Assembly (NCBI RefSeq): GCF_037902255.1
Contig: NZ_CP147990.1
Coordinates: 1,200,001 to 1,232,000 of the forward strand
Reading direction: 5' to 3'
Length of the DNA stretch: 32,000 bases
Source of the DNA: Candidatus Electrothrix sp. GW3-4
GTDB lineage: Bacteria; Desulfobacterota; Desulfobulbia; Desulfobulbales; Desulfobulbaceae
A program made the translations under genes and the position numbers. Of the stretch, positions 14,961-31,965 are shown piece after piece. Below the pieces are notes generated by a model. That model saw nothing but the letters and a program-made list of their open reading frames with translations, was not told where the DNA came from and did not search any database. The first letter of the stretch is position 1. Each line of letters opens with the position of its first letter.

Positions 14961-16565
14961 TTGACACCCTTTTTTTCGACAACGAGGAGCATTCCCCTGA
15001 AACTAATAATTAATAATTTGCGCATTCCTCTTGAAAAAGATGGGATGGATGAATATGTACATGCTGCTTCCAAAAAGATGGGAATAGGCGAAGGACTATC
15101 CATTTTAAAATTTTTGAGTAAATCTCTGGATTTAAGAAATCAAAATCAATTCTATTACATAGTCTCATTTGTTGTCAGCGTCAGTGACAGCTATGAAAAC
15201 AAGCAAAATTTCCCCAAATATAGAGAACAAATACAAGAAACCAGGAAGGCAGCAAGCAGTAAGGCTAACCCTATCATTGTTGGTTTTGGACCTGCTGGAA
15301 TATTTGCGGCGCTTGAACTTATAGCTTGTGGGCATAAACCTTTAATCTTCGAACGAGGTGAAAAGTTAGAGAAGCGCTCGATTGATGTTCAAAAATTTAT
15401 ACAAGAAAGGGTGTTACATCCTGAATCAAATATTCAATTTGGCGAAGGCGGTGCCGGTTCATACTCAGACGGCAAATTGTTCTCCCGGAGAAATAATAAT
15501 AAAAGCTCTACAAATAGGGTATTGAAAACCTTTGTTCAATTTGGTGCGCCCGATAAAATCGAGTACATCAGCAAGCCACATTTGGGAACGGATGTGTTGT
15601 GCAAAATAGTTCGTAATATGAGACGCTATATTCTTGATAGAGGAGGTGAAATACATTACGGCTCAAAAATGACGGACATCTTGATATCAGAGGGTAAGGC
15701 CTCAGGTGTTATAATAAATGGCGAGAAGGAATATCATTCCTCTCGCATCTATATTGCTTTGGGACATTCTGCACGCGATACAGTTGAGATGATGCATGAA
15801 AAAGGTGTTGCTCTTGAGCAGAGGCCACTTTCTGTTGGTGTGAGAATTGAGCATCCTGTCGAGACTGTAAACCTTATGCGATATGGTGCAAAATATCATA
15901 ACTTTAAAGGATTAGGCGCTGCCACCTATTCTTTGAATTATACGAACCGAAAAATTAAAAGAGGGGTTTATACATTCTGCATGTGCCCTGGAGGTGAGGT
16001 CGTTAATGCTTCATCCGAGCAAGGCATGTTGGTTTTAAACGGCATGAGCTACTCACGACGATCATCACCATTTTCAAATGCAGCGCTGGTTGTAAGATGT
16101 CATACCGACGATTATACATCAACCAGTCCATTGGCTGGCATAAAGTTCCAAAAAGACATTGAGCGAAAGGCCTTTAACGAAGGAGGGAAAAACTGGAAAG
16201 TCCCTGCCCAAAATTTGGTGAATTTTTTAGGAGAGAAGAGCTCTGCTGACTTACATGAAAACTCGTATAAGATGGGAGCCGTTCCTGCTGATATGAAGGA
16301 CATCTTTCCTGGATTTGTGATTGATCAACTGTTGGCGGCATTTAATAAATGGAAAGAAGAAGTACCCTTATTTATTTCAAATCAGGCGATATTATTAGGT
16401 GCGGAAACAAGAACGTCATCTCCTGTACGGATGAAACGCAATGACAACTTTGAATCAGTAAATATAAAAAATTTGTATCCAATAGGCGAAGGTTCAGGTT
16501 ATACAAGCGGAATAACGAGTTCTGCCGCTGATGCTATAAGGGCTGTCGAACTCCACGAATTGTAA
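14961..16565 (+). CDS. FAD-dependent oxidoreductase (COG2509-like NAD(FAD)-utilizing dehydrogenase)
   Basis: 534-aa ORF. Dinucleotide-binding IIVGFGPAGIFAALEL; GEGGAGSYSDGKL; C-terminal GEGSGYTSGITSSAADA. The true start may be CTG 14997, 7 nt after GAGGAG (MKLIINNLRIPLEKD). Visibly AT-rich versus aspS. Confidence 0.8.
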   Translation: MTPFFSTTRSIPLKLIINNLRIPLEKDGMDEYVHAASKKMGIGEGLSILKFLSKSLDLRNQNQFYYIVSFVVSVSDSYENKQNFPKYREQIQETRKAASSKANPIIVGFGPAGIFAALELIACGHKPLIFERGEKLEKRSIDVQKFIQERVLHPESNIQFGEGGAGSYSDGKLFSRRNNNKSSTNRVLKTFVQFGAPDKIEYISKPHLGTDVLCKIVRNMRRYILDRGGEIHYGSKMTDILISEGKASGVIINGEKEYHSSRIYIALGHSARDTVEMMHEKGVALEQRPLSVGVRIEHPVETVNLMRYGAKYHNFKGLGAATYSLNYTNRKIKRGVYTFCMCPGGEVVNASSEQGMLVLNGMSYSRRSSPFSNAALVVRCHTDDYTSTSPLAGIKFQKDIERKAFNEGGKNWKVPAQNLVNFLGEKSSADLHENSYKMGAVPADMKDIFPGFVIDQLLAAFNKWKEEVPLFISNQAILLGAETRTSSPVRMKRNDNFESVNIKNLYPIGEGSGYTSGITSSAADAIRAVELHEL

Positions 16566-16583
16566 GAAATTGAAGAGAGAAAA

Positions 16584-17060
16584 ATGAAAATACGTAAGCT
16601 TACTCCAGAAAATTTTGGCAAAGCCTATGCATTATTGCGTCAGGCGTTTCCTCGTAGCACATATGAAAGACAGTTAGCTGAAAAATTCCACAAGAATGGA
16701 AGGGGCGTTCATGAATGGGTGTGTATTCACTGCAATACAGTAATTGCCTATATTGCTTTTTCTCATGCCTATAACGGCTCTGACATCTGCGGCTTGCATT
16801 TGGGGCCGATGGCTGTAAAATCGGATTTTCAAAAGCAAGGGGTAGGCTCAGAGTTGCTTTGTTTTGCCTTGAGGCAGCCTGAAATAAAGGATAAAACCAT
16901 TTTTGTCTTGGGTGAGCCGAATTTTTATAAGAAATTTGGGTTTGAACTTTGTGCAGCACCAATTTGCCCATTTGACAAAAACAATACCCATTTTCTGGGT
17001 ATACGCAACAACTCAAATAACCAGTTCACTGTTGGATATGAATCTGAGTTTTATAAATGA
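16584..17060 (+). CDS. GNAT-family N-acetyltransferase
   Basis: 158-aa ORF. Acetyl-CoA pocket motif [11 protein letters not shown] followed by FYKKFGF. Confidence 0.7.
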
Positions 17061-17070
17061 TTTATTCGCA

Positions 17071-17280
17071 GCATTATATTCCGGGGCACCGCCCCACGGC
17101 GGTATTGCCTTTGGTGTGGATCGGCTGATGATGATACTGACCGGCTCTGATTCCATCCGGGATGTGATTGCCTTCCCTAAGACTCAGAAGGCTACCTGTC
17201 CGCTTACTGAGGCCCCGGCTTCGGTTGCCAGGAAGCAACTCACAGAGCTGCATCTTCGACCGGATTGGAAAGAAGATTAA
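17071..17280 (+). pseudogene. Displaced copy 2 of the aspS 3' end (last ~68 codons)
   Basis: Encodes ..[69 protein letters not shown]. Compare aspS ..[72 protein letters not shown]. No upstream aspS body. Starts immediately after the GNAT stop. Confidence 0.9.
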
Positions 17281-17454
17281 GCTGCACAACCTGTCTTTGT
17301 GCCTCCCGATTCCGGTGTCCTTGCCGGGGTCGGGAGAGATTACTTGTTGAATTCCGTAGTGGTAAATATTCAACCATTTTTTGCTGGGTTACGCAAGTTG
17401 TTGATTTACCTGCTCGTAATTTGTATTATTGCTTGACAACTACAGGAGAAGATA

Positions 17455-17937
17455 ATGAAGATTTTTTGGATGGTAACCTTTACCTGTTTTCTATTTGTTA
17501 CCTCTTTAACCACAAAAGGATATGCTCAGGATACAGATAAATCGTTATGGAAAGCTCAAGTTAAACAATTTATAGAAGACAGGACGGATATTGCAAACAA
17601 ACTTGAATCATGTGAAGTTTACGACAAGAAAATTAGAGACCCTTTTATTAATATTTTTATTGATAGAGACGCTGATAGTTTTATTTACATACGTATAAAA
17701 GGTATTATTGACGACAGATGTGTGTATGCTGAAGAATTTATAGGTAATATGCAATTTGAGTGTAAATATTCTGAGGAACAACGAAAAGCAGTAGCTTCTT
17801 ATTATAGAAAGTTGATGAAACAATATTCAAAACAGCTTGCGAAAGATGGCTCTGTGACTTTAGAGTACGATGCTAATAATCCGATGAATATTTATATGAA
17901 TGATGGAACTTGTTCAATTTCGCTCGTTAACAAATAA
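17455..17937 (+). CDS. Secreted Cys-containing protein, function unknown
   Basis: 160-aa ORF. GGAG 7 nt upstream of the ATG. Signal peptide MKIFWMVTFTCFLFVTSLTTKGYAQ. AT-rich. Confidence 0.6.
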   Translation: MKIFWMVTFTCFLFVTSLTTKGYAQDTDKSLWKAQVKQFIEDRTDIANKLESCEVYDKKIRDPFINIFIDRDADSFIYIRIKGIIDDRCVYAEEFIGNMQFECKYSEEQRKAVASYYRKLMKQYSKQLAKDGSVTLEYDANNPMNIYMNDGTCSISLVNK

Positions 17938-18004
17938 GCACTTGTTTACAGGTGGTATTGAATAGATAAGATTATTTTCCTGATATTGCTTGTTGTGATA
18001 CTGT

Positions 18005-18877: not shown

Positions 18878-20407
18878 ATGCAAAAGCTACCCATAGGTAT
18901 TCAAACCTTCACCAAAATCCGTGAAGAAGAATACCACTACGTCGATAAAACAAAAATTGCCTTTGAGCTGATCAACAACGGTAACTACTATTTTCTCTCC
19001 AGACCACGCCGCTTCGGCAAGAGCCTTTTTCTCTCCACCTTACAGGCTGTGTTCGAGGGCCGGAAAGAGCTGTTTCACGGCCTGTATATCTCTGACATCT
19101 GGGATTGGCAGACAACCTATCCGGTCGTCAAAATCAGTTTTGCCGGAGTGGCCCGCAATGTTGCTGCCATGCAGCAGGATATCAGGAATATCCTCAAGGA
19201 TAACCAAGAGCGCCTGAACATTGACTGCCTGCACGAAGAAGATACAGGCGGGTGCTTGCGGGAGTTGATCAGGAAGTCATTTGAGAAATATCAGCAGAAA
19301 GTTGTTATCCTTGTGGATGAGTACGACAAGCTGATCCTTGATAATTTGGATCAGCTGGAGGTCGCGCAGGAGGCAAGGGAAATCCTCAAAGACCTGTACG
19401 CAACCATCAAGGACTGCGACGAGTATATCAAATTCGCCTTTTTTACCGGCGTCAGTAAATTTGCCAAGGTCTCTGTGTTCAGCGGCCTGAACAACCTTTC
19501 GGATATCTCCCTTGACAGCCGTTACGCCACGATCTGCGGCTATACCCAGGATGATCTGGTAACCGTTTTTGCCGACCTCCTGCGAGACGCTGATATGGAA
19601 CGGGTGCGGGACTGGTACAACGGCTATAATTTTCTCGGAGAAAAAGTTTATAATCCCTTTGATATCCTGCTCTTCATCGATAAGGGACTCATTTTTAATA
19701 ATTATTGGTTCGAGACCGGCACGCCGACCTTTTTACTGAAGCTTATCCGGCAGAACAATTATTTCCTCCCCCGTCTTTCCGACCTGCGGGTTGACAGCTC
19801 TCTGCTCGACGGTTTTGATATCGACCATATCAGGCTGGAACCTGTCCTGTTTCAGGCCGGTTATCTGACGATCAAAGAAGTTCATGAATTGGAGTTCGGA
19901 GGGTTTGAATATACCCTGCACTATCCGAACCGGGAGGTCGCTCTTTCTTTTAATGACGCGCTTATCCGCTTTCTGACGGACGCGACAACATACACGCCCA
20001 CCAAGACCGGCCTGTTTTCCGCTTTAAAATCCGGGGATGTCGAAGCATTGAAAGATGTGCTTGTTTCCCTGTTCGCCTCGATTCCCTATAATAATTATGT
20101 CAAAAACACCCTTGCCGAGTATGAGGGCTACTATGCCAGTGTGATTTATGCCTATCTCGCAAGCCTAGGTATCCGCATCATTGCAGAGGATGTGACCAAT
20201 ATCGGGCGTATTGACTTAACGCTTTTTCTGGGTGATAACATATATATTGTCGAATTTAAAGTTGATGGCAATGCTGATCCCCTTGAGCAGATTAAAGAAC
20301 GAAAGTATGCGCAGAAGTACGCAGGTCAGGGGACTGTGTATTTGGTTGGTATTCTCTTCAGTAGTACAAAGAAGAATATTGAGACGTTTTCTTGGGAAAG
20401 GGTATGA
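18878..20407 (+). CDS. AAA-ATPase_like N-terminal domain / PD-(D/E)XK (PDDEXK_9-type) C-terminal domain protein
   Basis: 509-aa ORF. Characteristic N-terminus MQKLPIGIQTFTKIREEEYHYVDKTKIAFELINNGNYYFLSRPRRFGKSLFLSTL. Walker B-like VILVDEYDK. C-terminal nuclease-like GRIDLTLFLGDNIYIVEFK. Confidence 0.8.
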   Translation: MQKLPIGIQTFTKIREEEYHYVDKTKIAFELINNGNYYFLSRPRRFGKSLFLSTLQAVFEGRKELFHGLYISDIWDWQTTYPVVKISFAGVARNVAAMQQDIRNILKDNQERLNIDCLHEEDTGGCLRELIRKSFEKYQQKVVILVDEYDKLILDNLDQLEVAQEAREILKDLYATIKDCDEYIKFAFFTGVSKFAKVSVFSGLNNLSDISLDSRYATICGYTQDDLVTVFADLLRDADMERVRDWYNGYNFLGEKVYNPFDILLFIDKGLIFNNYWFETGTPTFLLKLIRQNNYFLPRLSDLRVDSSLLDGFDIDHIRLEPVLFQAGYLTIKEVHELEFGGFEYTLHYPNREVALSFNDALIRFLTDATTYTPTKTGLFSALKSGDVEALKDVLVSLFASIPYNNYVKNTLAEYEGYYASVIYAYLASLGIRIIAEDVTNIGRIDLTLFLGDNIYIVEFKVDGNADPLEQIKERKYAQKYAGQGTVYLVGILFSSTKKNIETFSWERV

Positions 20408-20458: not shown

Positions 20459-20590
20459 GATAACAAATGATTTGATTTTGTTATCAAACAGTTCTATTTG
20501 CTTATCTAAATATTTGATGAGCAGATCAAATTGCTGGATGAGCAGATCAAATTTTTTGATCTTTTTATCTAAATTTTAGATAAGCTCATC
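20459..20590. repeat. Nested palindromes plus 17-bp direct repeats (iteron/operator-like block)
   Basis: Hairpin gataacaaa/tttgttatc (20459-20485). Perfect direct repeat gatgagcagatcaaatt at 20516-20532 and 20537-20553 (21-bp period). Composite palindrome 20537-20590: gatgagc [agatcaaa..tttgatct] [ttatctaaa..tttagataa] gctcatc. A third ttatctaaa lies at 20502-20510. Confidence 0.8.
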
Positions 20591-20794: not shown

Positions 20795-21178
20795 ATGAAC
20801 AATGAACTAATAGAGATTTTTATTGATTTAGCAACAAGTACACCAGAAGATGCGATAAATCAAAACGAGCTTTTTTATATATATGAAGAATTAGAATCAA
20901 AAGGGGCATGTTTGATACCTCTTGAGTCAGCTATTTTGCCAAATTATAATCAAAAATCTGGTTCAGGGGATATAGATATATTAATAGGTGCAATACATAT
21001 TGCTCTACCTGCAAGTGCTGTTGTTGCAGTATTAGTTTCTTTTGTGAAAAAATATTTTGATACATGCAAATCAAAACGGTTAAGGATAAAACGAAAAGAT
21101 GGAAGCATAGTCGAGATTTCAGGTTATAATGGAAAGGAAACAGAGAAAATATTGCATAAACTAATAAACTATAAATAG
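20795..21178 (+). CDS. Small single-pass membrane protein, possible effector-associated constant component (EACC1-like)
   Basis: 127-aa ORF. Acidic N-terminal region, hydrophobic helix ILIGAIHIALPASAVVAVLVSFV, basic juxtamembrane KSKRLRIKRK, short C-terminal DGSIVEISGYNGKETEKILHKL. Ends 14 nt before the caspase-like gene. Very AT-rich. The family assignment is recollection only. Confidence 0.5.
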   Translation: MNNELIEIFIDLATSTPEDAINQNELFYIYEELESKGACLIPLESAILPNYNQKSGSGDIDILIGAIHIALPASAVVAVLVSFVKKYFDTCKSKRLRIKRKDGSIVEISGYNGKETEKILHKLINYK

Positions 21179-21194
21179 TTCTTTTGTAAACAAA

Positions 21195-22460
21195 ATGGCA
21201 CTCAATAGTAAAAACTGGGTAATTTCTATAGGAGTTAATGATTCAAGAGATCATGAAAGCCTAAAGTGTCCGCATTTTGATGCTGGAGATGTGTTTAGTA
21301 TCATATCTAAAAATTGGAAATGTGATTCACAAAATAAAATATTATTAACAGGGAATCAAGCTACAACAAAAAATATTAATATCATTCTTAATGAGGTATT
21401 AATGAGAATGGCAGATGAAAATGATCGTATATTTATTTATCTGTCTGGACATGTTAATACGAATGTACGCTCAGTTACCGGTTCTTTTGTGAGCTATGAT
21501 TATTGTAAAGAAAAACGGAATTTTGGGCTGAATTTACGGTCATTAAGGTACATTGTCGAAGACTCAAGAGCCAAATATATTATAGTAGTAATAGACGGAT
21601 GTTCTTCAGGTGTAATCGCACAAGGAAATAAAAATAATACACCGCATTGGTTTTATTTCACTACAGGTGAAATGGATTCAGAGGCAAGTACAAAGCTTTT
21701 TATTACAGCAGTTTCCTCTGGAAAACATGCTTATGAACACGAAGATAAAAGAAACTCTGAGTTCACAAGAATACTGGTAGATACGATATCTCCTTTTATA
21801 AAAAGAAAAGAGAGTCTCAGTACGACCCTATTTTATGAATTTTTAGTTAAAAAATCGAAGAAATATAATATGTATCCTGTAAAATCTGGAGTGGAAATTG
21901 GATACACTAATTTTATTGAAAGCAATCATCAGGATAATGTTATATTGTCAGATGATAATAAACCTTATATCCCGAAATGGATAGAAGGTCTTTTTGATAA
22001 TTGTAAAAACAATAGTACTGTTAATAACAAAGATAAGTCTGTTTTCGTAAGAGATAATAACTTTGCAGATGGTTCAAGGTTAACAATCGGACAGATAATA
22101 AAAAAATCTTGGCGCATTCGTAATGCAGGTAATGTTAGTTGGAAAAGTCGTTTTTTGAAAATGATTGGGCAATCCAGAGGAACTGGACGTATTCATTGCA
22201 ATAATATAATTCCAATACCTGATGCTGAACCGAACCAAGAGATTGATATTGAGATTGAATTAAGAATGCCACCTTATCCATGTTCAGTATATGCAGAATT
22301 CAAAATGACAGATTCATCTGGAAATATTTTATTTCCAAACCAAAGAGGACTTTATGTAACTTTTGACGTTATTGATCCAGCTAGCCAGAATGAGTACGTT
22401 TTATCTTCTTCAGATAGAGAACTCGTGAGTCGCGAGTTTTCACTTCGCTTTAAAATATAA
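21195..22460 (+). CDS. Caspase-like (peptidase C14 fold) protease with C-terminal NBR1-type Ig (FW) domain
   Basis: 421-aa ORF. WVISIGVNDS, catalytic-His context FIYLSGHV (His86, nt 21450-21452), catalytic-Cys context IIVVIDGCSSG (Cys136). The C-terminal ~120 aa match the N_BRCA1_IG/NBR1 FW pattern: FVRDNNFADGSRLTIGQIIKKSWRIRNAGNVSW...PNQEIDIEIELRMPPYPCSVYAEFKMTDSSGNILFPNQRGLYVTFDVI. Confidence 0.75.
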   Translation: MALNSKNWVISIGVNDSRDHESLKCPHFDAGDVFSIISKNWKCDSQNKILLTGNQATTKNINIILNEVLMRMADENDRIFIYLSGHVNTNVRSVTGSFVSYDYCKEKRNFGLNLRSLRYIVEDSRAKYIIVVIDGCSSGVIAQGNKNNTPHWFYFTTGEMDSEASTKLFITAVSSGKHAYEHEDKRNSEFTRILVDTISPFIKRKESLSTTLFYEFLVKKSKKYNMYPVKSGVEIGYTNFIESNHQDNVILSDDNKPYIPKWIEGLFDNCKNNSTVNNKDKSVFVRDNNFADGSRLTIGQIIKKSWRIRNAGNVSWKSRFLKMIGQSRGTGRIHCNNIIPIPDAEPNQEIDIEIELRMPPYPCSVYAEFKMTDSSGNILFPNQRGLYVTFDVIDPASQNEYVLSSSDRELVSREFSLRFKI

Positions 22461-22554
22461 AAAGTACAAAAATAGGAAGACTTCTCTAAAGAGAAAATAT
22501 AAAAGAGCATACAAACTGTAAATGTCTACCAAACATTTAATCTTCACGATGAAG

Positions 22555-23980
22555 GAGTTTGTATGCTCACATATCTATATGACTCACTATACGGTTTTCG
22601 TAAAGTATTTTCCCGTCACCGCACCTGGTTAATCTTTGTGATGATAGTTTTGGGGTTCATCGGTAGCAGCGAAATGACAGGAGTTTCTTCCTTCTGCCGT
22701 TTTTGGCTGATAGACAATCAAGGGTACTCTAAGTTACTGGGACTTTTTCGTTCTTCAGCCTGGGAATTAAGTGGCTTGCTGGAATACTGGTCTGTTTTTG
22801 CTGTCTACCAACAACAGTCTGTTTTTTCGCAAGGTCGACTGGTTACACTGGGAGACCATACATATGTCCCCAAGGAAGGTCGCCGAATGCCCGGTGTTGT
22901 AACTTTACGCCAAGACTCTGAAACACAAAGCAAACCCTCGTATTTCAGAGGTCAGTGCTGGGGAGGCCTGGCTTTGGCCGTTGGCAGTTTGACAAATCCT
23001 TTGGCCATTGATTTTGCTCTTCAAACGAACCAGGGTGTTCTCTTGGTTCTGGATGCTTTTTTTTCTGTAGGTCCGGTGTTTCTGCTGGCCCAGGCAACCT
23101 GGCTGACGTCAATTGAAGCTCCTGCTGTTCATATTATTACAAAGGCAAAGAAGAATTATGTCGCATACTTACAGGCAGATCCATCTCGTTACATTGGGAT
23201 CGGTCGTCCCTGTAAGTATGGAGAGCATATTCATCTGATGGAAGTTTTTGACCATCTCCACCTGTTTCAAAAAGTATCGGTCCGTATCTACGGACATATG
23301 GAGAAAATTTATATTTTCCACCTGGATTTATTATGGAAATCTACTCAAGGGCCGCTTCGTTTTGTTTTTGCCAAAACGTCACGTGGCCCCATTGTTCTTA
23401 TGTGCAGTAACCTCGACCAGGACCCGATTGCTGCAATCGAACTCTATTGTCTCAGAACCCGCATAGAAACCATGTTCGATATGCTGAAAAATGTTCTCCA
23501 TATCTTCCAATGTCACTTCTGGTCGAAAAAAATGCCGAAACATTCGAGGAAACCCAAAAGCAATAAAAATCAAAAGGCTCCACAGGCAGAAAACCAAAAA
23601 ACGGTTCAAGCTTGCTGGGATGCTACTGAACGTTTTGTTAACCTTGGAGCAATTTCCCTTGGTTTGCTTCAGTTAATCGCCCTCAAATTTCCAGAAGAAA
23701 TATGGAGCAGATTTGAAGGATTCTTGCGGACCCGTTCTCGGGATATTCCTTCTGAAAGAACTGTTAAAATGGTGATTGCAAATTTGTTGGTACAGAATTT
23801 TCTCAAAGTCGAGCCAACAGCGACAATGCGAGAAATTCGTGCCAAAATTCTCAAGGGCGAATTCAAGAAAAAATTTCCTCAAACTGAACACCCCGTTAAT
23901 CAACGGGCAGCTTGAAAATTCATAGTCTTAAGCAAAATTGATTGATACGGCTGTTTCATCATGTGGAGCAGTACAAACTC
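22555..23980 (+). mobile_element. IS4-superfamily insertion sequence (about 1.43 kb)
   Basis: Imperfect terminal inverted repeats: gagtttgtatgctcacat (22555-22572) versus the reverse complement of 23961-23980, gagtttgtactgctccacat (18 matches, two 1-nt indels). Single transposase ORF inside. Composition differs from the AT-rich DNA on both sides. No target-site duplication identified. Confidence 0.6.
22563..23915 (+). CDS. DDE transposase, IS4-like (YREK signature)
   Basis: 450-aa ORF. LGDHTYVPKEG (D1), LVLDAFF (D2), YCLRTRIETMFDMLK, which fits Y-x2-R-x3-E-x6-K exactly. Confidence 0.85.
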   Translation: MLTYLYDSLYGFRKVFSRHRTWLIFVMIVLGFIGSSEMTGVSSFCRFWLIDNQGYSKLLGLFRSSAWELSGLLEYWSVFAVYQQQSVFSQGRLVTLGDHTYVPKEGRRMPGVVTLRQDSETQSKPSYFRGQCWGGLALAVGSLTNPLAIDFALQTNQGVLLVLDAFFSVGPVFLLAQATWLTSIEAPAVHIITKAKKNYVAYLQADPSRYIGIGRPCKYGEHIHLMEVFDHLHLFQKVSVRIYGHMEKIYIFHLDLLWKSTQGPLRFVFAKTSRGPIVLMCSNLDQDPIAAIELYCLRTRIETMFDMLKNVLHIFQCHFWSKKMPKHSRKPKSNKNQKAPQAENQKTVQACWDATERFVNLGAISLGLLQLIALKFPEEIWSRFEGFLRTRSRDIPSERTVKMVIANLLVQNFLKVEPTATMREIRAKILKGEFKKKFPQTEHPVNQRAA

Positions 23981-24279
23981 ACGACTGTCGAGATAGAGAA
24001 GAAAGATGCTTTATAACTAAAGATATATATGGCGATATGTATTCTTCAGAAGTTAAAATTCTGAGTAGCTTTAAAGATAATGTCTTGATAAAAAATAGAA
24101 TATGTAAAGAAGTAGTATCTATTTATTATTCAGATTTTGGCAAGAAAGTAGCAGCTTACATAAAAATATATTTTCCATTCATGATTCCTCTTGTAAGAAA
24201 GTTTTTAAATGGAGTAATTTATTTGATACTTGTTTTTTGGACAAGCAAATCAGGAAGAACAAAATGTATAGATAAATAA
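23938..24279 (+). CDS. Orphan small protein with CFI..YG..V..L..F.D..L......YY motif and hydrophobic C-terminus; possibly truncated
   Basis: 113-aa ORF with a TTG start lying inside or adjacent to the right IS end. CFITKDIYGDMYSSEVKILSSFKDNVLIKNRICKEVVSIYYSDFGKKVAAYI resembles the CFIATAAYGS...LR.FRD..L...YY..SP tail I recall from other bacterial proteins. Followed by the hydrophobic FPFMIPLVRKFLNGVIYLILVFW. Same extreme AT-richness as the caspase module. Confidence 0.4.
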   Translation: MIDTAVSSCGAVQTHDCRDREERCFITKDIYGDMYSSEVKILSSFKDNVLIKNRICKEVVSIYYSDFGKKVAAYIKIYFPFMIPLVRKFLNGVIYLILVFWTSKSGRTKCIDK

Positions 24280-25359: not shown

Positions 25360-28300
25360 GTGAAAAATATAAAGATTTTTGTGGGAGCAACTCTGCTCTT
25401 TATTATTGTGCTGTTTGGTATCACGGTTGCGATAATTCCCCTTCTTCTTTCCTCAGACTGGGCAAAGAACAGTGTTGTCAGCAAGGTAAACAGCAGCTCT
25501 TCTGGTAAGCTTGCCCTTGGCGATTGTGCGATCGGCTGGAGTGAGGGGCTCAAGTGTACAGAGGTTTCCTACCATGATCAGGGCTATCAGGTTGATGCCG
25601 CCCACCTAACCGGGACCCAGGGCCTGTTTTCCCTGCTCATGGCGCCCAAGAATCTTGGGACCATTACGGTAGATGACCCTGTGGTGGTTATCGCCCAGCC
25701 CCAAGCGAAGCCTGGCAGCGAAGACGAGACGCTTGCTGCGCAAACCGATTCCAGAACTCCTGCAAAAACAGAGGACCACGCTAAGGAAACATCAAACTCC
25801 GAAAAAGAAACAGGAAAACCCGGAACTTGGTTCTGGCATAAGATGAGGGGTAAAATACTCCTGAATCGAGCTATTGTTAAATTGCAACAGGGAGCGCAGG
25901 AGCCGCAAATGCTGGTGCAGGAAGGGGCTTTGGATCTGACCCTTGCCTCTGACACCCTTAAGCTGAACCTTGTCTTGGCAACCGGGGCAGAACAGACTGG
26001 AGGAGAGGTCAAGGCCGTGGGAACTGCTCATTTACCTTCGGTGAAAGGTGATCTGCTGGATCTCATGACCGCTGACATGCAGGTGACCTTTACCGATGTT
26101 CAACTCGCTCCCTTCCTGGCCCTGGCCCCTGCTGAGGGCAGTGTCCCGCAAGGGCAGGCAATTCTGGCCTCTGAATTGACCGTCAAGAATACCGAGGGCG
26201 GTAACCTGGTGTTGCGTGGTCCGATCACCCTGGAGAAGGTTGATCTGACCGGTGGTTTTCTGGCAGAGGATCATCCCCGGCTTGACCAACTGGCCTTTGA
26301 ACTGCATATCCAACGGGATGAACAAAAGGAGTGGCGGCTGCCTGAGCTGAAAATGCTTTCCGATTTTGGCAGCGTGGGGCTTCAGTCCAGCTACGGTAAA
26401 CAGGGATTGCAGGCCACAGGCGAGGGCAAGTTTGATTTGCCGGTCCTCCTTACCCAGTTGCCCGGCCTGTTCAAGGTCCAGGAGAACCTGCGGCTGGAGA
26501 ACGGGAGAGCCTCGTTAGCCTTTGAGGTGGCAGAGAAAGACAAGGTGATGCAGCTTAGTGCCGAGGCCACGGTTGAGGACCTGGAAGGTCGACAAAATCG
26601 ACAGCCCTTTGTCTGGAAGAGTCCGCTGCGCCTGAGTCTGAAGGGCAGTATGGCAGGCAAAGAACCTGAGGTGGACAGGCTTGCCCTTCAGGCCGACTTT
26701 CTGGATATAGAAGGGCAGGGGAATCTGCACCATTTTACCCTTAAGGGCACGGCAGACCTGGACCAGGCCATGCAGGAGATCTCTCGCATCATCCAGTTTG
26801 ACTGGGATGTTGGAGGACGCCTGAAGTTGGATCTGGAGACAACAAAGGATAGCGAGGAGCGTTATACCGTTGATGCCAAGGTTGATATTGCCGATTACCG
26901 GCTCTCTATGAAAAATAAGGAGGTGCTGCCGGTTCATCAGTTTCGTTTTAACGGCAAGCTGGTCGCACCTGGCTATTTTCCCAAGGCAAAGGCAGAGGCT
27001 GCCGATCTGACCTTTGATCTGTCTTCCTGGGCTGGCGATCTTACAGGCGCCCTGAGCGGCGTGTATCGGGACCAGGGGCAGGTCATGGCCCATTATCAGC
27101 TGGATGCAGACATCCTGTTAGCCCGGGTGACGGAATTGCTCCACCGTTTTGACGCCTTGGAGCAAGAAACCAGCATGGCCGGAGATATGAAGTTGCAGAC
27201 CACCGGTTATACAGAAAAAGACCGGCTGGTGGTCAGTACCTTGGATTCACGGATCAAGGGATTTATCCTCTATCGCCAGGGAAAGATCTTGCAGGATCCA
27301 GAGCTCTCGTTGTTTACCACCAAACCTGAGCCAACACCCAATGTGGAAGAAGCGGTACGAGCATTGGAAAAGGCGGAGAGTAAGGATGCCTTTTTTGCCC
27401 AGGGGGGCTATAACCTGATTGATACCAAGAATCATCGCCTGGTGCTGCGTAATTTATCCCTGAACTCCGGCTTTGCGGATATCAGGGTCGAAAAGATCTT
27501 TCTTGATGACTGGCAGCAGAAACCAGCGCCCGCCATCAAGGCCCTACAGGTCAATGGCAGATCTGATCTTGCCAAGCTGACCACCCTGTTGCAGCAACTG
27601 GGCGCAATGCAGCCGGAACAGAAGTTCGCTGGTGATGCGATCTTCTCCCTTGATTTGGCAGAGAGAAAGGAAGATATCAAGATCGCAGGATCAACAAGCA
27701 GGGGTAACTCTGGTACTGTCAAGCTCGATATTGATCACTTCTCCTACAGTAAAATCGGGAAAAAGGTTCGAGGGAAAAAGGGCCAGGAAGAGCTCCTTAT
27801 TGAGCGGCAGAAATTGGTTTTCAGGAGTCGCCTCCATGGTGACCTTACGGCCGGTGATGTGCAGTTTACCACCTTTGATATTGAATCTGCCCCGCTGAGC
27901 CTCCAGGCCGATGGCGAATTTCAATTGAGCGGGAAAAAACCGCATTTTTCTCTGGATGGGCAGGCAACGCCTGATTTGGCCTCCTTAGTGGCTATCCTGA
28001 ACGGGATGTATCCTCTTGGCATCGAGGCAACCGGGAAAAAGAAGGAGAAATTTACCCTATATTATCCTCTCGCCCCAGAGGAGAAAGAAAACGCCAAGAT
28101 CAATCTACGCTTTGCAACAAAGGTCTATGCAGATTCCTTTTCCAGATCCGGCATTGATGTGAGCAGGCTCACCTTGGACACGGATATGAAGCAAGGGGTG
28201 ATGGACAGTGTGCTGAAAGGGACCCTGAATGACGGTTGGTTGCAGCTTTCCCCTCGCATTGATTATACGCAAACCCCACCCCTCCTCACGATGGCAGAGG

Positions 28301-28938
28301 GCGAACAGGTGTTAACAGATGTGCATCTTGAAGAGGCCCTGACTGAGGGTATTCTTAAAGGGATTCACCCCGTCTTTGGCTCATTGGCTACCCCCGCAGG
28401 AATTATCAATGTCCGGTTGGACCGCTTCTCTCTCCCCCTTGAAGAAAAAGGGATGGAAAAAATCGATTTTAAGGTCTTCCTTGATTTGACCGGCGTGGCC
28501 TTGGAGCCTAAGGGCGTCCTGAGTAGTATCCTGGAGGTGGCAGGCTACGTGGACAGCACGCTGACCATGAAGAATAAAAGCATGACCTGTGAAGGCGTGC
28601 AGGGGCAGGTCAGCTGTACACCGATCAAGATGATCATTGCTGATTCGGAAATGATCATCAGCGGCTCTGCTGGAATGGACGGCAGCCTGGAGTATATTGT
28701 CGAGGTCCCGGTGACCAAAAGGTTACTGGGAAAAAAAGGCTATGAGTTACTTAAAGGCACCACCCTGAAGGTCCCGATTAAAGGCACTAAGGATAAGCCC
28801 GTATATAGCCGTGATGCCCTGATGCGGGCATCGTCGGACCTGCTCAAGCAGGCAGCGGGCCAGGCGACCAAAAATGTTTTGAGAGAGCAGGTTGATAAGG
28901 TTGTTCCTGATCTCCTGGATAACCTTTTTGGAAAATAA
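25360..28938 (+). CDS. AsmA-family / TamB-like large envelope protein
   Basis: 1192-aa ORF. GTG start 8 nt after GGAG. N-terminal anchor KIFVGATLLFIIVLFGITVAIIPLLL. Long, repetitive, beta-rich body. C-terminal LKVPIKGTKDKPVYSRDAL typical of AsmA-like C-termini. Confidence 0.65.
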   Translation: MKNIKIFVGATLLFIIVLFGITVAIIPLLLSSDWAKNSVVSKVNSSSSGKLALGDCAIGWSEGLKCTEVSYHDQGYQVDAAHLTGTQGLFSLLMAPKNLGTITVDDPVVVIAQPQAKPGSEDETLAAQTDSRTPAKTEDHAKETSNSEKETGKPGTWFWHKMRGKILLNRAIVKLQQGAQEPQMLVQEGALDLTLASDTLKLNLVLATGAEQTGGEVKAVGTAHLPSVKGDLLDLMTADMQVTFTDVQLAPFLALAPAEGSVPQGQAILASELTVKNTEGGNLVLRGPITLEKVDLTGGFLAEDHPRLDQLAFELHIQRDEQKEWRLPELKMLSDFGSVGLQSSYGKQGLQATGEGKFDLPVLLTQLPGLFKVQENLRLENGRASLAFEVAEKDKVMQLSAEATVEDLEGRQNRQPFVWKSPLRLSLKGSMAGKEPEVDRLALQADFLDIEGQGNLHHFTLKGTADLDQAMQEISRIIQFDWDVGGRLKLDLETTKDSEERYTVDAKVDIADYRLSMKNKEVLPVHQFRFNGKLVAPGYFPKAKAEAADLTFDLSSWAGDLTGALSGVYRDQGQVMAHYQLDADILLARVTELLHRFDALEQETSMAGDMKLQTTGYTEKDRLVVSTLDSRIKGFILYRQGKILQDPELSLFTTKPEPTPNVEEAVRALEKAESKDAFFAQGGYNLIDTKNHRLVLRNLSLNSGFADIRVEKIFLDDWQQKPAPAIKALQVNGRSDLAKLTTLLQQLGAMQPEQKFAGDAIFSLDLAERKEDIKIAGSTSRGNSGTVKLDIDHFSYSKIGKKVRGKKGQEELLIERQKLVFRSRLHGDLTAGDVQFTTFDIESAPLSLQADGEFQLSGKKPHFSLDGQATPDLASLVAILNGMYPLGIEATGKKKEKFTLYYPLAPEEKENAKINLRFATKVYADSFSRSGIDVSRLTLDTDMKQGVMDSVLKGTLNDGWLQLSPRIDYTQTPPLLTMAEGEQVLTDVHLEEALTEGILKGIHPVFGSLATPAGIINVRLDRFSLPLEEKGMEKIDFKVFLDLTGVALEPKGVLSSILEVAGYVDSTLTMKNKSMTCEGVQGQVSCTPIKMIIADSEMIISGSAGMDGSLEYIVEVPVTKRLLGKKGYELLKGTTLKVPIKGTKDKPVYSRDALMRASSDLLKQAAGQATKNVLREQVDKVVPDLLDNLFGK

Positions 28939-28967: not shown

Positions 28968-29354
28968 ATGGATACCCTACTCAGGCTTTCCCTCATCGGT
29001 GCTGGTGGTTTCACCGGAGCTGTCCTCCGTTTTCTGGTCAGCTCCTGGGCACAAGGACGTTCCGGTTCGATAATTTTTCCCTTCGGCACCCTGACCGTGA
29101 ATATGGTCGGGTGTCTGCTGATAGGATTTCTCAGTGCGTTGGTCGAAATCAGGGCCATGTTTTCTCCTGAGACCCGGAGCTTTGTCCTTATTGGCCTGCT
29201 GGGTGCTTTCACCACCTTTTCCACCTTTGGCAACGAGACCCTGAACCTGATCCGGGAAAGCCGAATTGAGCTGGCCCTCCTTAATGCAGGAGGACAGGTG
29301 CTTCTCGGGGTGTTGCTGGTGTGGTTAGGACGGGTTCTTGCGGGCTTGCTTTGA
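28968..29354 (+). CDS. crcB: Fluoride ion channel CrcB/FluC
   Basis: 128-aa ORF with four hydrophobic helices. GAGGFTGAVLRF, FPFGTLTVNMVGCLLIG, GAFTTFSTF. Confidence 0.9.
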   Translation: MDTLLRLSLIGAGGFTGAVLRFLVSSWAQGRSGSIIFPFGTLTVNMVGCLLIGFLSALVEIRAMFSPETRSFVLIGLLGAFTTFSTFGNETLNLIRESRIELALLNAGGQVLLGVLLVWLGRVLAGLL

Positions 29355-29404
29355 AGCAGATTGAAAAAAAACAAAAAAGAGTAATTGGGAAGAGGCAAGA
29401 CATT

Positions 29405-30964
29405 TTGTATCAACAATCACTCATTAATCCTGTAAGCGATATTGTCAGTATCCAAGGGGCTTTTTTGGATTCTAAGGCATTAGAAGAACGAAGAAGTCTG
29501 GGGCAGTTTTTTACAGGTTTGATAGTCTCTGATTACATGGCCTCACTTATAGAGCCTTCTGAAGGGAAAGCTGTCCAGATTTTAGATGCAGGTGCTGGGA
29601 CGGGCATTTTGGCGGCTTCGGCAGCCTTGCATTGCCTCAACCTGGGGTGTGAGTCCGTTCATGCTGTGTTGTATGAGATTGATGCCCAAGCTCTTCATTT
29701 TCTTGACCAGACTTTGCGTATCGTGAGAAAGATATATCAAAGTCAACAGGCATCCTTTACCTGTGAGATCTATTGTGAAGATTTTGTTCTTGCAAGACCT
29801 GACAAAGATGCAAAAGTTCAATCTTTTGATATTGCAGTGATAAATCCGCCGTATTTTAAATATAGCGTAAAATCATCACCATATGCTAAGGCAACAGCTG
29901 ATCTGTATCATGGCGACCCGAATATTTATGCGTCATTTATGGCTGTTGTCATGGCTTGCTTGAAACGTGGAGGGCAAATGATTACAATTACTCCTCGTAG
30001 CTTTACCAATGGCCTCTATTTTAAGGGGTTTAGGTCTTATTTGCTTAATGAATCCTCACTGGAATCCGTCCATATCTTTAAACATCGAGATAAGGTCTTC
30101 AAAGATTCTTCTTCGGCCGTGCTACAGGAAAATGTTATTTGCCGCTTTAAGAGAGGTTGTCGGGCGCAACACGTCGCTGTGACTTCAAGTAATTGTGATG
30201 CAGATATTCAGCATGGGGCCAAAGAGGTGTATCCCACTGCATTGATCATTGATTCTTCTAATGACCAGAATATGATCAGAATTCCAGAGTCAGTCTATGA
30301 GGCAGAGATACTTCAACAGGCTGAAATGTTTGAAACCACCTTTCAGGATTGTGGTTATTTTATTTCAACAGGCCGCATTGTTGAGCATCGTACACGAGAG
30401 TATATTACTGACAATACCAGAGCGGAGAACATTGTACCCCTCTATAGGCCTCATAATGTAACTCCGTTACAGGCAACCTGGACTGGGGATCATAAAAAAG
30501 ATGTATCTTTCCTACTTATTGAAGGACATAAAAAACATACTCTGAAGAATGGGACCTATGTACTTTTAAAGCGTTTTTCATCAAAAGACGAGAAACGCCG
30601 ACTCGTTGCCGCTGTGCATCTTGCTGAAATGCATAACTGTCAATTGATTGGCTTTGGTAATAAGGTAAATTATATCGGACTGATGAATGGAGAGCTCTCC
30701 GCCGCAGAAGCCTACGGGCTTGCAGCTGTTTTTAATTCTTCCTTTATGGATAGATACTTCAGGTCTATTTCGGGGAATACCCAGGTAAATGCCACAGAAA
30801 TTCGATTAATGAAGTTTCCATCGCGAAATCAGGTGAGAAAGATAGGTGAACAAGCACAAAGAATGTCCTTGAATAACTTAAGTGAGTTTGATGATCTTGT
30901 TCATCCTATTCTTGGGATAGCGCTGGAGCATCTCGATAACTCTGGCTCCTCGTCACTAAATTGA
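29405..30964 (+). CDS. N6-adenine DNA methyltransferase, Eco57I/PstI-BsuBI-type (gamma class)
   Basis: The track ORF 29321-30964 overlaps crcB. Likely starts are TTG 29405 (after GAAGAGG) or TTG 29351. GQFFT, motif [12 protein letters not shown], motif [13 protein letters not shown]-richer than crcB. Confidence 0.8.
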
Positions 30965-31965
30965 AATTTACAAAGAAACAAGAACAGAAGCTTCAAGAGG
31001 CCAAATCATTATTGACAGCTTTAGGCCTGCCAAAAGCTCAATGCAATGATCGTTCGGCCTGGGTTTTGTTAGCCTTAGCTCATGTGAAGCCTTCCGATAC
31101 CTGGAGTTCTGTAACCGCACCTCTGCTGCCCACGGTGAGCATCATGGAGTTCATCCGTAATGAATACGGTATGAATTATAAGCCGAATAGCAGGGAAACC
31201 ATTCGAAGACAAACACTTCATCAGTTTGAGCAGGCCAGAATCGTCGACCGCAATAGGGATGATCCTGCTCGACCCACCAACAGTAAAGATAATAATTACT
31301 CGTTAAATCAACCGATATTGGATATTATGGTGGAATATCCAGATGGAAATTGGCAGGAGAAAATTCAGGATTTTAAGCAAGCTGTACCTGAGCTAAGGAG
31401 TCAGTATCAACGAGTTATTGATATGCATAAGATTCCGATCCGTTTACCAAACGGCGAGACGATAAGATTGTCACCGGGGAAACATAATCAACTGCACGCT
31501 GATATTATCCATGAGTTCTGTTCTCGCTTTATCGGGCTAAGTGGCCGGGTGCTTTACGTTGGCGATACAGCCAGTAGCAGAGAGGAAGGTGGCAAGCTCA
31601 TGCTTCTGGAGAAAGAATATTTGGAAGAGCTAGGAGTTCCCCCTCTGTCCCACGAGAAATTGCCTGACGTTTTGGTGTATGACAAAAAACAGCACTGGCT
31701 TTTTTTGATTGAAGCCGTGACCAGTCATGGTCCTGTTTCACCAAAACGATGGTTTGAACTCGAAGAGGCCTTTAAAGGATGCAAGGTAGGGATGGTGTAC
31801 GTGACTGCATTTCCAGATCGCGCAGCATTCCGAAAAAATGCTACCGAAATTGCATGGGAAACAGAGGTATGGATTGCCGACCAGCCGGATCACCTTATCC
31901 ATTTTAACGGGGATCGATTTTTGGGGCCGCACAGAAGAGATGACGAGAGTAATAACTACCCTTAA
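30961..31965 (+). CDS. Type II restriction endonuclease, BsuBI/PstI family
   Basis: 334-aa ORF. TTG start overlaps the methyltransferase stop (TTGA). C-terminal [19 protein letters not shown]...[45 protein letters not shown] matches my recollection of the BsuBI_PstI_RE family. Confidence 0.75.

Follow-up and report, generated by a model that had tools for sequence, protein, structure and literature searches.

Here we describe a two-gene module of the EACC1-caspase class from the multicellular cable bacterium Candidatus Electrothrix sp. GW3-4, which probably encodes a protease-gated suicide system of the abortive-infection type. The module lies in a stretch of 32,000 nucleotides (nt) of the genome (positions 1,200,001 to 1,232,000 of contig NZ_CP147990.1, RefSeq assembly GCF_037902255.1); the whole stretch is referred to as the window, and all coordinates are counted from its first letter. 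The first gene encodes a protein of 127 amino acids (aa) from a divergent EACC1 subfamily, the second a caspase-like protease with a C-terminal FW domain, which is an immunoglobulin (Ig)-like domain of the NBR1 type; the protease gene is interrupted by an insertion sequence (IS). A previous sequence-only reading had recognised the open reading frames (ORFs) at 20795-21178 (127 aa) and 21195-22460 (421 aa) on the plus strand and had likened their layout to that of EACC1-caspase conflict modules. The coordinates were reproduced by an ORF check, and the layout agrees with the two-gene systems described by Kaur et al. (2020; PMC7159879). The two ORFs are separated by 16 nt; that reading gave 14 nt. 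The features of the module are listed below, with the basis of the assignment in brackets.

20795-21178, plus strand: gene for the 127-aa EACC1-subfamily protein, a predicted latent pore-forming toxin (Pfam, hhalign, AlphaFold 2 [AF2])
20954-20956, plus strand: Lys54 codon, predicted P1 residue of the activating cleavage K54/S55 (inferred)
21195-22421, plus strand: 5' part of the caspase-FW protease gene, codons 1-409, up to the IS insertion point (homologues, alignment, AF2 model)
21210-21917, plus strand: caspase/metacaspase-like (clan CD) protease domain, residues ~6-241 (PADLOC, NCBIfam, Foldseek, dyad alignment)
21450-21452 and 21600-21602, plus strand: codons of the catalytic residues His86 and Cys136
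22044-22373, plus strand: FW (NBR1-type Ig-like) domain, residues ~284-393 (Pfam PF16158, Foldseek, alignment to 7VQO)
22412-22421, no strand: left target-site duplication (TSD) AGATAGAGAA (exact 10-nt direct repeat)
22422-23990, plus strand: inserted IS701-like element, 1569 bp, G + C content 0.42 (TSD, end alignment, NCBIfam)
22563-23915, plus strand: transposase gene within the IS
23991-24000, no strand: right TSD AGATAGAGAA (exact 10-nt direct repeat)
24001-24279, plus strand: severed 3' end of the protease gene, 92 aa, with a CFI-box C-terminal domain and a hydrophobic tail

The protease, its FW domain and the EACC1 partner

The protease is named by NCBI only as an 'NBR1-Ig-like domain-containing protein'. 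Its N-terminal part was matched by the PADLOC model 'caspase' (2.7e-12) and, as the best NCBIfam hit, by 'caspase, EACC1-associated type' (NF047832; 2.1e-12, 47 bits with a cut-off of 140). Among its 18 homologues (E<=1e-109), P0003, P0005 and P0014 pass the Pfam model Peptidase_C14 (PF00656; 23.1-26.9 bits, cut-off 21.4). An AF2 model of the 421-aa protein, built with the 18 homologues, had a predicted template modelling (TM) score (pTM) of 0.82 and a mean predicted local distance difference test (pLDDT) value of 79.7. In Foldseek searches, the caspase domain matched MALT1 (3v4o; TM 0.71), and also Yca1, bacterial GSU0716, plant metacaspases and caspases; over the full length, the best structural matches were those to the caspase-Ig3 region of MALT1 (E 3.6e-9). 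The residues His86 and Cys136, proposed as catalytic dyad in the sequence-only reading, are invariant across the 18 homologues, and this assignment is therefore correct. In alignments of the protease-domain profile to the structures 6W8S and 4F6O, the motifs SGH and DGC.SG fall in one stretch on YSGH and DSCHSG of Arabidopsis metacaspase-4, and SGH was also aligned with SGH of yeast Yca1. Model and alignments together confirm that the predicted fold is of the caspase-haemoglobinase type and that the His/Cys pair occupies the catalytic positions.

What had been described as a linker of roughly 140 aa between the protease and the Ig-like domain is, in the AF2 model, largely made up of the caspase fold's second half, whose strands and helices extend to about residue 241. 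The true linker comprises ~40 aa and is helical and conserved, with P260 and W262 invariant. Loop 138-164, which follows the catalytic Cys, is conserved yet of low confidence in the model, and resembles the L4 loop of MALT1, which is disordered in apo MALT1. Asp29 in helix 1 and Asp134 at position -2 from the catalytic Cys are invariant in the protease family and are predicted, by comparison of sequences, to be acidic residues of the S1 pocket; the equivalent positions are occupied by Asp in the Arg/Lys-specific enzymes MALT1 and TbMCA2 and by Arg and Gln in caspases (PMC4357240). The D29/D134 signature is also present in canonical EACC1-associated caspases.

The NBR1-type Ig domain at the C-terminal side was recovered with PF16158 (N_BRCA1_IG; 1.3e-11, 45.4 bits with a cut-off of 28), and its fold was matched by Foldseek to the FW domains of human NBR1 (4OLE; TM 0.76), ILRUN (6VHI; TM 0.86) and CtNbr1 (7VQO). 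The FW domain of CtNbr1 accommodates the cargo's free N-terminal Gly-Gly in a pocket formed by F651, D654, D658, W672, L762 and W763, and recognition of N-terminal peptides has been proposed as the way in which FW domains bind in general (Zhang et al. 2022; PMC9233695). When the family FW profile was aligned with the 7VQO chain, F284, D287, D292 and W306 fell on F651, D654, D658 and W672; all four residues are invariant or nearly so in the family. Of the four signature tryptophans, only W306 and W316 remain; the third is replaced by F369 and the fourth, by motif, by Y387. The FW domain is the probable sensor of the protease, and the earlier suggestion that it serves as a ligand-recognition element is plausible. 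Because the pocket residues are conserved, we infer that the ligand may be the free N-terminus of a protein.

A profile scan of genome contigs with the full protease gave no full-length relative and only FW-domain relatives, mostly from Chloroflexota, and no relatives were found in a scan of viral contigs. FW/NBR1-Ig domains are common in metagenome-assembled genomes of Chloroflexota (Anaerolineae, Caldilineae, Ardenticatenaceae), often as long multi-segment matches (L010-L052); these match the query in the FW region only (residues ~250-420), not in the caspase region.

The 127-aa protein consists of an N-terminal alpha/beta part (residues 1-45), a disordered loop (47-59) and a single hydrophobic segment with a small-residue patch (61-83, ILIGAIHIALPASAVVAVLVSFV), followed by a basic patch and a C-terminal beta hairpin and helix, so that the segment is flanked by short alpha + beta parts. 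The Kyte-Doolittle maximum for a 19-residue window is 2.37 at residues 62-80. The AF2 model (pLDDT 84.5) shows a compact alpha + beta fold, in which the hydrophobic segment packs on the N-terminal elements to form a soluble globule and residues 47-59 are the only disordered region; residues 1-45 are the predicted autoinhibitory part. The model agrees with the description by Evans et al. (2025; bioRxiv 10.1101/2025.11.14.688446), in which N-terminal strands pack with C-terminal strands. A Foldseek search of the model against the PDB gave no significant match, the best being to generic alpha + beta folds (E 0.03).

An exhaustive HMMER search with the subfamily against 1.84 billion representatives returned only 26 relatives. 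The Pfam model EACC1 (PF19953) was matched by 11 of 13 subfamily members and by 10 of 16 more distant relatives (best 2e-8), two of which (P0056 and P0057) are encoded directly 5' of Peptidase_C14 genes, one fused to SIR2. Subfamily and distant EACC1 relatives were also aligned with each other by hhalign (99.4%, E 4.6e-21, 119 columns). On these comparisons the 127-aa protein is a member of a divergent subfamily of EACC1, with a link that is firm at the family level. Three large proteins (P0053, 1556 aa; P0058, 1115 aa; P0060, 2955 aa) contain 6-8 short matches each to the profile of the EACC1 subfamily, at profile positions 3-42, 8-37 or 98-125; these repeats could be an EACC1-like sub-element or a compositional artefact.

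The pairing seen in the window recurs elsewhere: in all 10 independent loci, comprising the window and every homologous contig retrieved (L001, L002 and L003 counted as one, L004-L009, and L056), the protease gene is directly preceded on the same strand by the small gene, with gaps of -11 to +56 nt. Pairwise distances between the EACC1 proteins correlate with those between the proteases (Mantel r=0.79, p~4e-4), which suggests that the two co-evolve. As a control, 77 distant caspase loci were searched with our own hidden Markov models (HMMs), which may miss divergent EACC1; none had an EACC1-like upstream gene or an FW domain. The genes flanking the pair differ from locus to locus. The AT-richness pointed out in the sequence-only reading is evident from the G + C content of the module (0.306, versus 0.473 in the remaining window), but it does not support the recent acquisition that was deduced from it: the G + C content of the cassette is below that of its flanks in 9 of 9 loci examined, and is therefore a property of the cassette. 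Besides the module, the homologous loci contain various other genes. TIR, GmrSD_N and HEPN_RiboL-PSP proteins are encoded beside the module in L007 (299-4492). In L008 (185-3280), an HD-CE/iHD-CE protein of 1031 aa is encoded there, which also has a weak match to HATPase, slightly under the Pfam cut-off. A radical-SAM-type gene is located 20-165 nt 3' of the protease gene in several loci (L002:4593-5669, L003:4529-5605, L007:6238-7317 and L006:3288-4235); the copies of L002 and L007 are 65% identical, whereas that of L006 is a different radical-SAM protein. The gene was rejected as a third component, since it is absent from the other loci and has left no remnant in the window; it may have an accessory role in a single sub-clade.

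The IS701-like element in the protease gene

The sequence-only reading had treated the IS as a neighbour of the module and the 421-aa ORF as the native protein. The element in fact sits within the protease coding sequence, at 22422-23990, and the native C-terminus of 92 aa is encoded behind it, at 24001-24279. It is bounded by a perfect 10-bp TSD, its terminal inverted repeats are imperfect and offset, and its transposase best matches the IS701 family (NF049999; 2.4e-29, 102.5 bits with a cut-off of 170). Since the first 39 nt of the IS provide the last 12 codons and the stop codon of the 421-aa ORF, the last 12 residues of this ORF are IS-encoded. Removal of the IS together with one TSD copy restores an in-frame protein of 501 aa, which is colinear with the closest homologues P0002-P0004 (65-68% identity, 496-500 aa); all three have the C-terminal extension that is missing from the 421-aa ORF. 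The severed tail is 54% identical to that of P0002 (L008/L055). The isolated tail gave a marginal match to NCBIfam CFI_box_CTERM (NF041770; 1.7e-10, 40.6 bits with a cut-off of 40), and the reconstructed 501-aa protein a match of 36.6 bits at residues 412-464. The CFI-box tail with its hydrophobic stretch is a probable membrane tether; the searchable literature contained no mention of the CFI-box.

A second assembly contains this truncated allele as well, differing by a single substitution (N90D), and the insertion is therefore real and persistent. Whether the local copy is a dead relic, in which the protease, without a required CFI-box tail, is unstable or in the wrong place and activation of the toxin never occurs, is a question for this copy and not for the mechanism of the family. 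We regard this as a serious possibility, albeit not the expected state. The position of the IS within the coding sequence, with its perfect TSD, speaks for it, as do the retention of the tail by all three closest homologues, the match of the tail to CFI_box_CTERM, and the low confidence of the AF2 model at residues 400-421. Set against this, 14 of 17 homologues stop naturally just after the FW domain, so that the truncated product would keep the core of the family, although its activity is uncertain; furthermore, neither ORF has any other lesion, the severed tail of 279 nt remains an open frame, and the allele has persisted.

Proposed mechanism and competing explanations

EACC1-caspase systems with up to 50 alternative C-terminal domains were described by Kaur et al. 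(2020; PMC7159879), who proposed EACC1 as a membrane sensor. For a homologous system of Ktedonobacter, it has been shown that a caspase fused to an Avs12 sensor cuts EACC1 into fragments of ~5.7 and 7.1 kDa, that toxicity is confined to the C-terminal fragment, and that liposomes are permeabilised only by cleaved EACC1 (Evans et al. 2025; bioRxiv 10.1101/2025.11.14.688446). Because EACC1 is there the toxin cleaved by the neighbouring protease, the roles assumed in the sequence-only reading, i.e. a membrane-tethered activator or sensor plus a protease effector, have to be reversed: by homology, EACC1 would be the cleavage-activated death effector, the protease its activator and the C-terminal domain of the protease the sensor. 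The same study overtakes the statement that the module does not match any experimentally characterised caspase system.

We propose the following mechanism. The 127-aa EACC1 protein would be a latent pore-forming toxin, whose hydrophobic segment is held soluble by its own N-terminal domain. The downstream metacaspase-like Cys protease (His86/Cys136) would be the activator, with the FW domain as its sensor. Binding of the FW domain to a foreign protein, perhaps an oligomeric one, at the free N-terminus of the latter would gather protease molecules and switch them on; this ligand-induced proximity activation is assumed by analogy. The active protease would then cleave the exposed loop of EACC1 after Lys54, and the freed residues 55-127 would oligomerise in the membrane, whereupon the cell dies. 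In the ancestral protease of this sub-clade, the extra CFI-box tail would likely have tethered the enzyme to the membrane, until the tail was severed here by the IS701-like element.

The cleavage site is the most specific part of this proposal. The motif K-[SA]-[GSTAD] occurs in each of the 18 subfamily members, its Lys 6-9 residues ahead of the hydrophobic segment, and Lys54 sits inside the low-confidence loop 47-59; distant EACC1 proteins have Arg-Gly at this position. An invariant Lys in the only disordered loop, combined with the acidic S1 pocket of the protease (D29, D134), leads us to predict cleavage at K54/S55. At the second residue after the predicted cut, 10 of the 18 members have Gly and the others Asp, Thr or Ala. 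For the Ktedonobacter EACC1, where the published site is a putative Asp49, toxicity was kept with shifted sites (Evans et al. 2025).

Several observations weigh against the proposed mechanism. The 127-aa protein narrowly misses the Pfam cut-off for EACC1 (E=2e-4, 21.7 bits versus 23.6; residues 56-120, HMM positions 35-100), and no match of the window protease to Peptidase_C14 was reported by the Pfam search; the two proteins thus remain under the curated cut-offs for EACC1, EACC1-type caspase and Peptidase_C14, and are therefore divergent. For the FW domain, the last two of the six pocket positions are assigned to L386 and Y387 by motif only, and the beta1-beta2 pocket loop exceeds that of CtNbr1 by one residue. 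We know of no ligand for any bacterial FW domain. Since the protease gene is disrupted by the IS, the module may be inactive in Electrothrix GW3-4. Finally, the precedent comes from a preprint that deals with a distant homologue (bioRxiv 10.1101/2025.11.14.688446), whose cleavage site, Asp49, is 'putative', derived from an AlphaFold 3 model and not basic (Evans et al. 2025).

In its strictest form, the proposal makes the FW domain a stand-alone, NTPase (nucleoside triphosphatase)-free immune sensor that reads a foreign or processed protein N-terminus and directly licenses toxin release by the protease; this form is tentative and rather unlikely. More speculatively, the FW domain could capture cleaved EACC1 and seed or amplify pore assembly, because the new N-terminus of the toxin (Ser or Ala, mostly followed by Gly) resembles the small-residue N-termini that FW domains accept.

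The trigger might also come from elsewhere, with the FW domain acting as an intramolecular allosteric or dimerisation regulator like Ig3 of MALT1, which we consider unlikely. The region of MALT1 that gave the best full-length structural match is exactly caspase-Ig3, the pTM of 0.82 suggests a defined packing of the domains, and the linker helix, with its invariant P260 and W262, is conserved; however, superposition on MALT1 has a root-mean-square deviation (rmsd) of ~18 Å and a TM of ~0.42, so that the domain arrangement differs, FW and Ig3 are different Ig-like families, and the invariance of the ligand pocket residues argues for retained ligand binding.

An improbable alternative is that the module serves developmental or stress-related cell death in the filaments (ghost cells, fragmentation) rather than phage defence, with the FW domain sensing an endogenous signal, e.g. 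the N-terminus of a damaged or processed host protein. EACC1 systems are strongly enriched in multicellular prokaryotes (650/671; PMC7159879), cable bacteria form dead ghost cells and possess caspase-domain genes of unknown function (PMC12163305), and EACC1-DnaK fusions suggest stress sensing (Evans et al. 2025). Defence is favoured by the position of some homologous loci among defence genes (TIR, GmrSD and HEPN in L007, HD-CE in L008), by a restriction-modification (R-M) system 5 kb downstream in the window, and by the occurrence of the low-GC cassette in varying contexts, which is typical of mobile defence genes; moreover, the EACC1-FW-protease family is rare and patchy and no conserved trait of cable bacteria. 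Very improbable is the original model of Kaur et al. (2020), which was followed in the sequence-only reading and in which a membrane EACC1 sensor activates the caspase and a freed C-terminal domain or other substrates act as effector: the conserved hydrophobic segment with its small-residue patch was read as a sensing transmembrane helix (PMC7159879) and the C-terminal domain of the protease is variable, but experiments on a homologous pair identify EACC1 as substrate and toxic component (Evans et al. 2025), no toxic activity is known for an FW domain, the segment is part of a soluble globule in the AF2 model and does not stand alone as a transmembrane helix, and an invariant Lys lies in the exposed loop.

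The protease-gated module proposed here is of a kind that is already known and whose mechanism has now been described, but it represents a rare branch. New are the FW-sensor architecture without an NTPase and the CFI-box tail, as well as the rarity of the branch, the proposed rule of cleavage after a basic P1 residue and the disruption by the IS; no report of NBR1/FW domains together with bacterial caspases or EACC1 was found in the searchable literature. That EACC1-protease modules are pore-forming toxins gated by a protease was demonstrated only recently, and few of their many sensor domains are understood so far. An FW branch without an NTPase would rank among the smallest sensor-protease-toxin circuits, and because the peptide pocket of the FW domain is well defined and conserved, its trigger can be sought directly. 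Such a circuit would supply the first functional context for bacterial FW domains and would tie prokaryotic immunity to a fold that recognises autophagy cargo in eukaryotes. The conserved basic residue in the activation loop of EACC1 and the acidic S1 pocket form a concrete, testable cleavage rule for the family. For cable bacteria, in which dead 'ghost' cells still lack an explanation, the module is also a candidate cell-death system, albeit in a copy damaged by the IS.

Related systems and neighbouring genes

The closest known system is 'System 4' EACC1-caspase of Kaur et al., or EACC1-KrAvs12 of Ktedonobacter racemifer (PMC7159879; bioRxiv 10.1101/2025.11.14.688446). Both have a small EACC1 gene in the 5' position, followed by a gene for an N-terminal caspase-like protease with a variable C-terminal domain, and both occur in a multicellular host. 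Their EACC1 proteins share the order of N-terminal alpha/beta part, loop, hydrophobic segment and C-terminal strands, with a predicted cut just before the hydrophobic segment that would yield 54 + 73 aa here, compared with 5.7 + 7.1 kDa there. In contrast to EACC1-KrAvs12, the module carries an FW/NBR1 sensor in place of the Avs12 STAND NTPase, and no NTPase domain was detected in the 421-aa or 501-aa protein with Pfam and NCBIfam; both its proteins are divergent and score under curated HMM cut-offs, the predicted P1 residue is Lys instead of the putative Asp49, and this sub-clade has the extra CFI-box tail, which in the local copy is cut off by the IS.

As in bacterial systems of gasdermin and caspase-like protease, the protease would strip the autoinhibitory part from a latent pore-former and the cell would die. 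Unlike in gasdermin systems, the effector is a 127-aa EACC1 protein without detectable gasdermin similarity, its predicted autoinhibitory part is N-terminal, and there is no gasdermin gene nearby. With the paracaspase MALT1, the best overall structural match, the protease shares a caspase fold followed by an Ig-like domain and the acidic S1 positions, which imply basic P1 specificity; it differs in having no death domain and no Ig1 or Ig2, in its FW domain in place of Ig3, in the domain arrangement mentioned above and in a sequence identity of 10-13%. The FW domain has the fold of those of NBR1, CtNbr1 and ILRUN (TM 0.76-0.86), with the PF16158 signature and conserved residues of the N-terminal-peptide pocket. 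It deviates from them in the two lost signature tryptophans and the longer beta1-beta2 loop, and it is fused to a protease and not, as in NBR1-type receptors, to PB1, ZZ, LIR or UBA modules.

Other genes around the module are as follows.

18878-20407, plus strand: 509-aa protein with AAA-ATPase_like (3.6e-65) and PDDEXK_9 nuclease domains, directly upstream of the module
25360-28938, plus strand: ORF of 1192 aa, between the disrupted module and the type II R-M system
29321-31965, plus strand: type II R-M pair, ~5 kb downstream of the module

The absence of an adjacent NTPase, CRISPR or gasdermin partner gene, recorded in the sequence-only reading, was upheld, and no gasdermin match was found among the neighbour proteins with Pfam and PADLOC. 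The AAA-ATPase_like/PDDEXK_9 gene was rejected as a third component because it is absent from all homologous loci. The 1192-aa ORF, which was without Pfam or PADLOC match, may be an uncharacterised gene of a defence island. The R-M pair comprises an Eco57I-like N6 methyltransferase (PADLOC MTase_II, 7.8e-114) and, with a 4-nt overlap, a BsuBI/PstI-type endonuclease (PADLOC REase_II, 9.6e-105).

The AT-rich intergenic region 5' of the EACC1 gene contains a 17-nt direct repeat, GATGAGCAGATCAAATT, at 20516-20532 and 20537-20553 (copies 21 nt apart), and further motifs, TTATCTAAA and AGATAAGC, near it. Checks for tandem repeats and minus-strand ORFs revealed no tandem array and no ORF in this region; the GATGAGCAGATCAAATT repeat could be an operator or a gene remnant. 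The window contains no tRNA gene. A second stretch of low G + C content (0.39-0.41), with genes for an FAD-dependent protein and a GNAT acetyltransferase and unannotated ORFs, extends over 15001-18000, just after the housekeeping genes hisS and aspS (G + C ~0.52-0.54), and this step suggests that the variable region begins near 15 kb.

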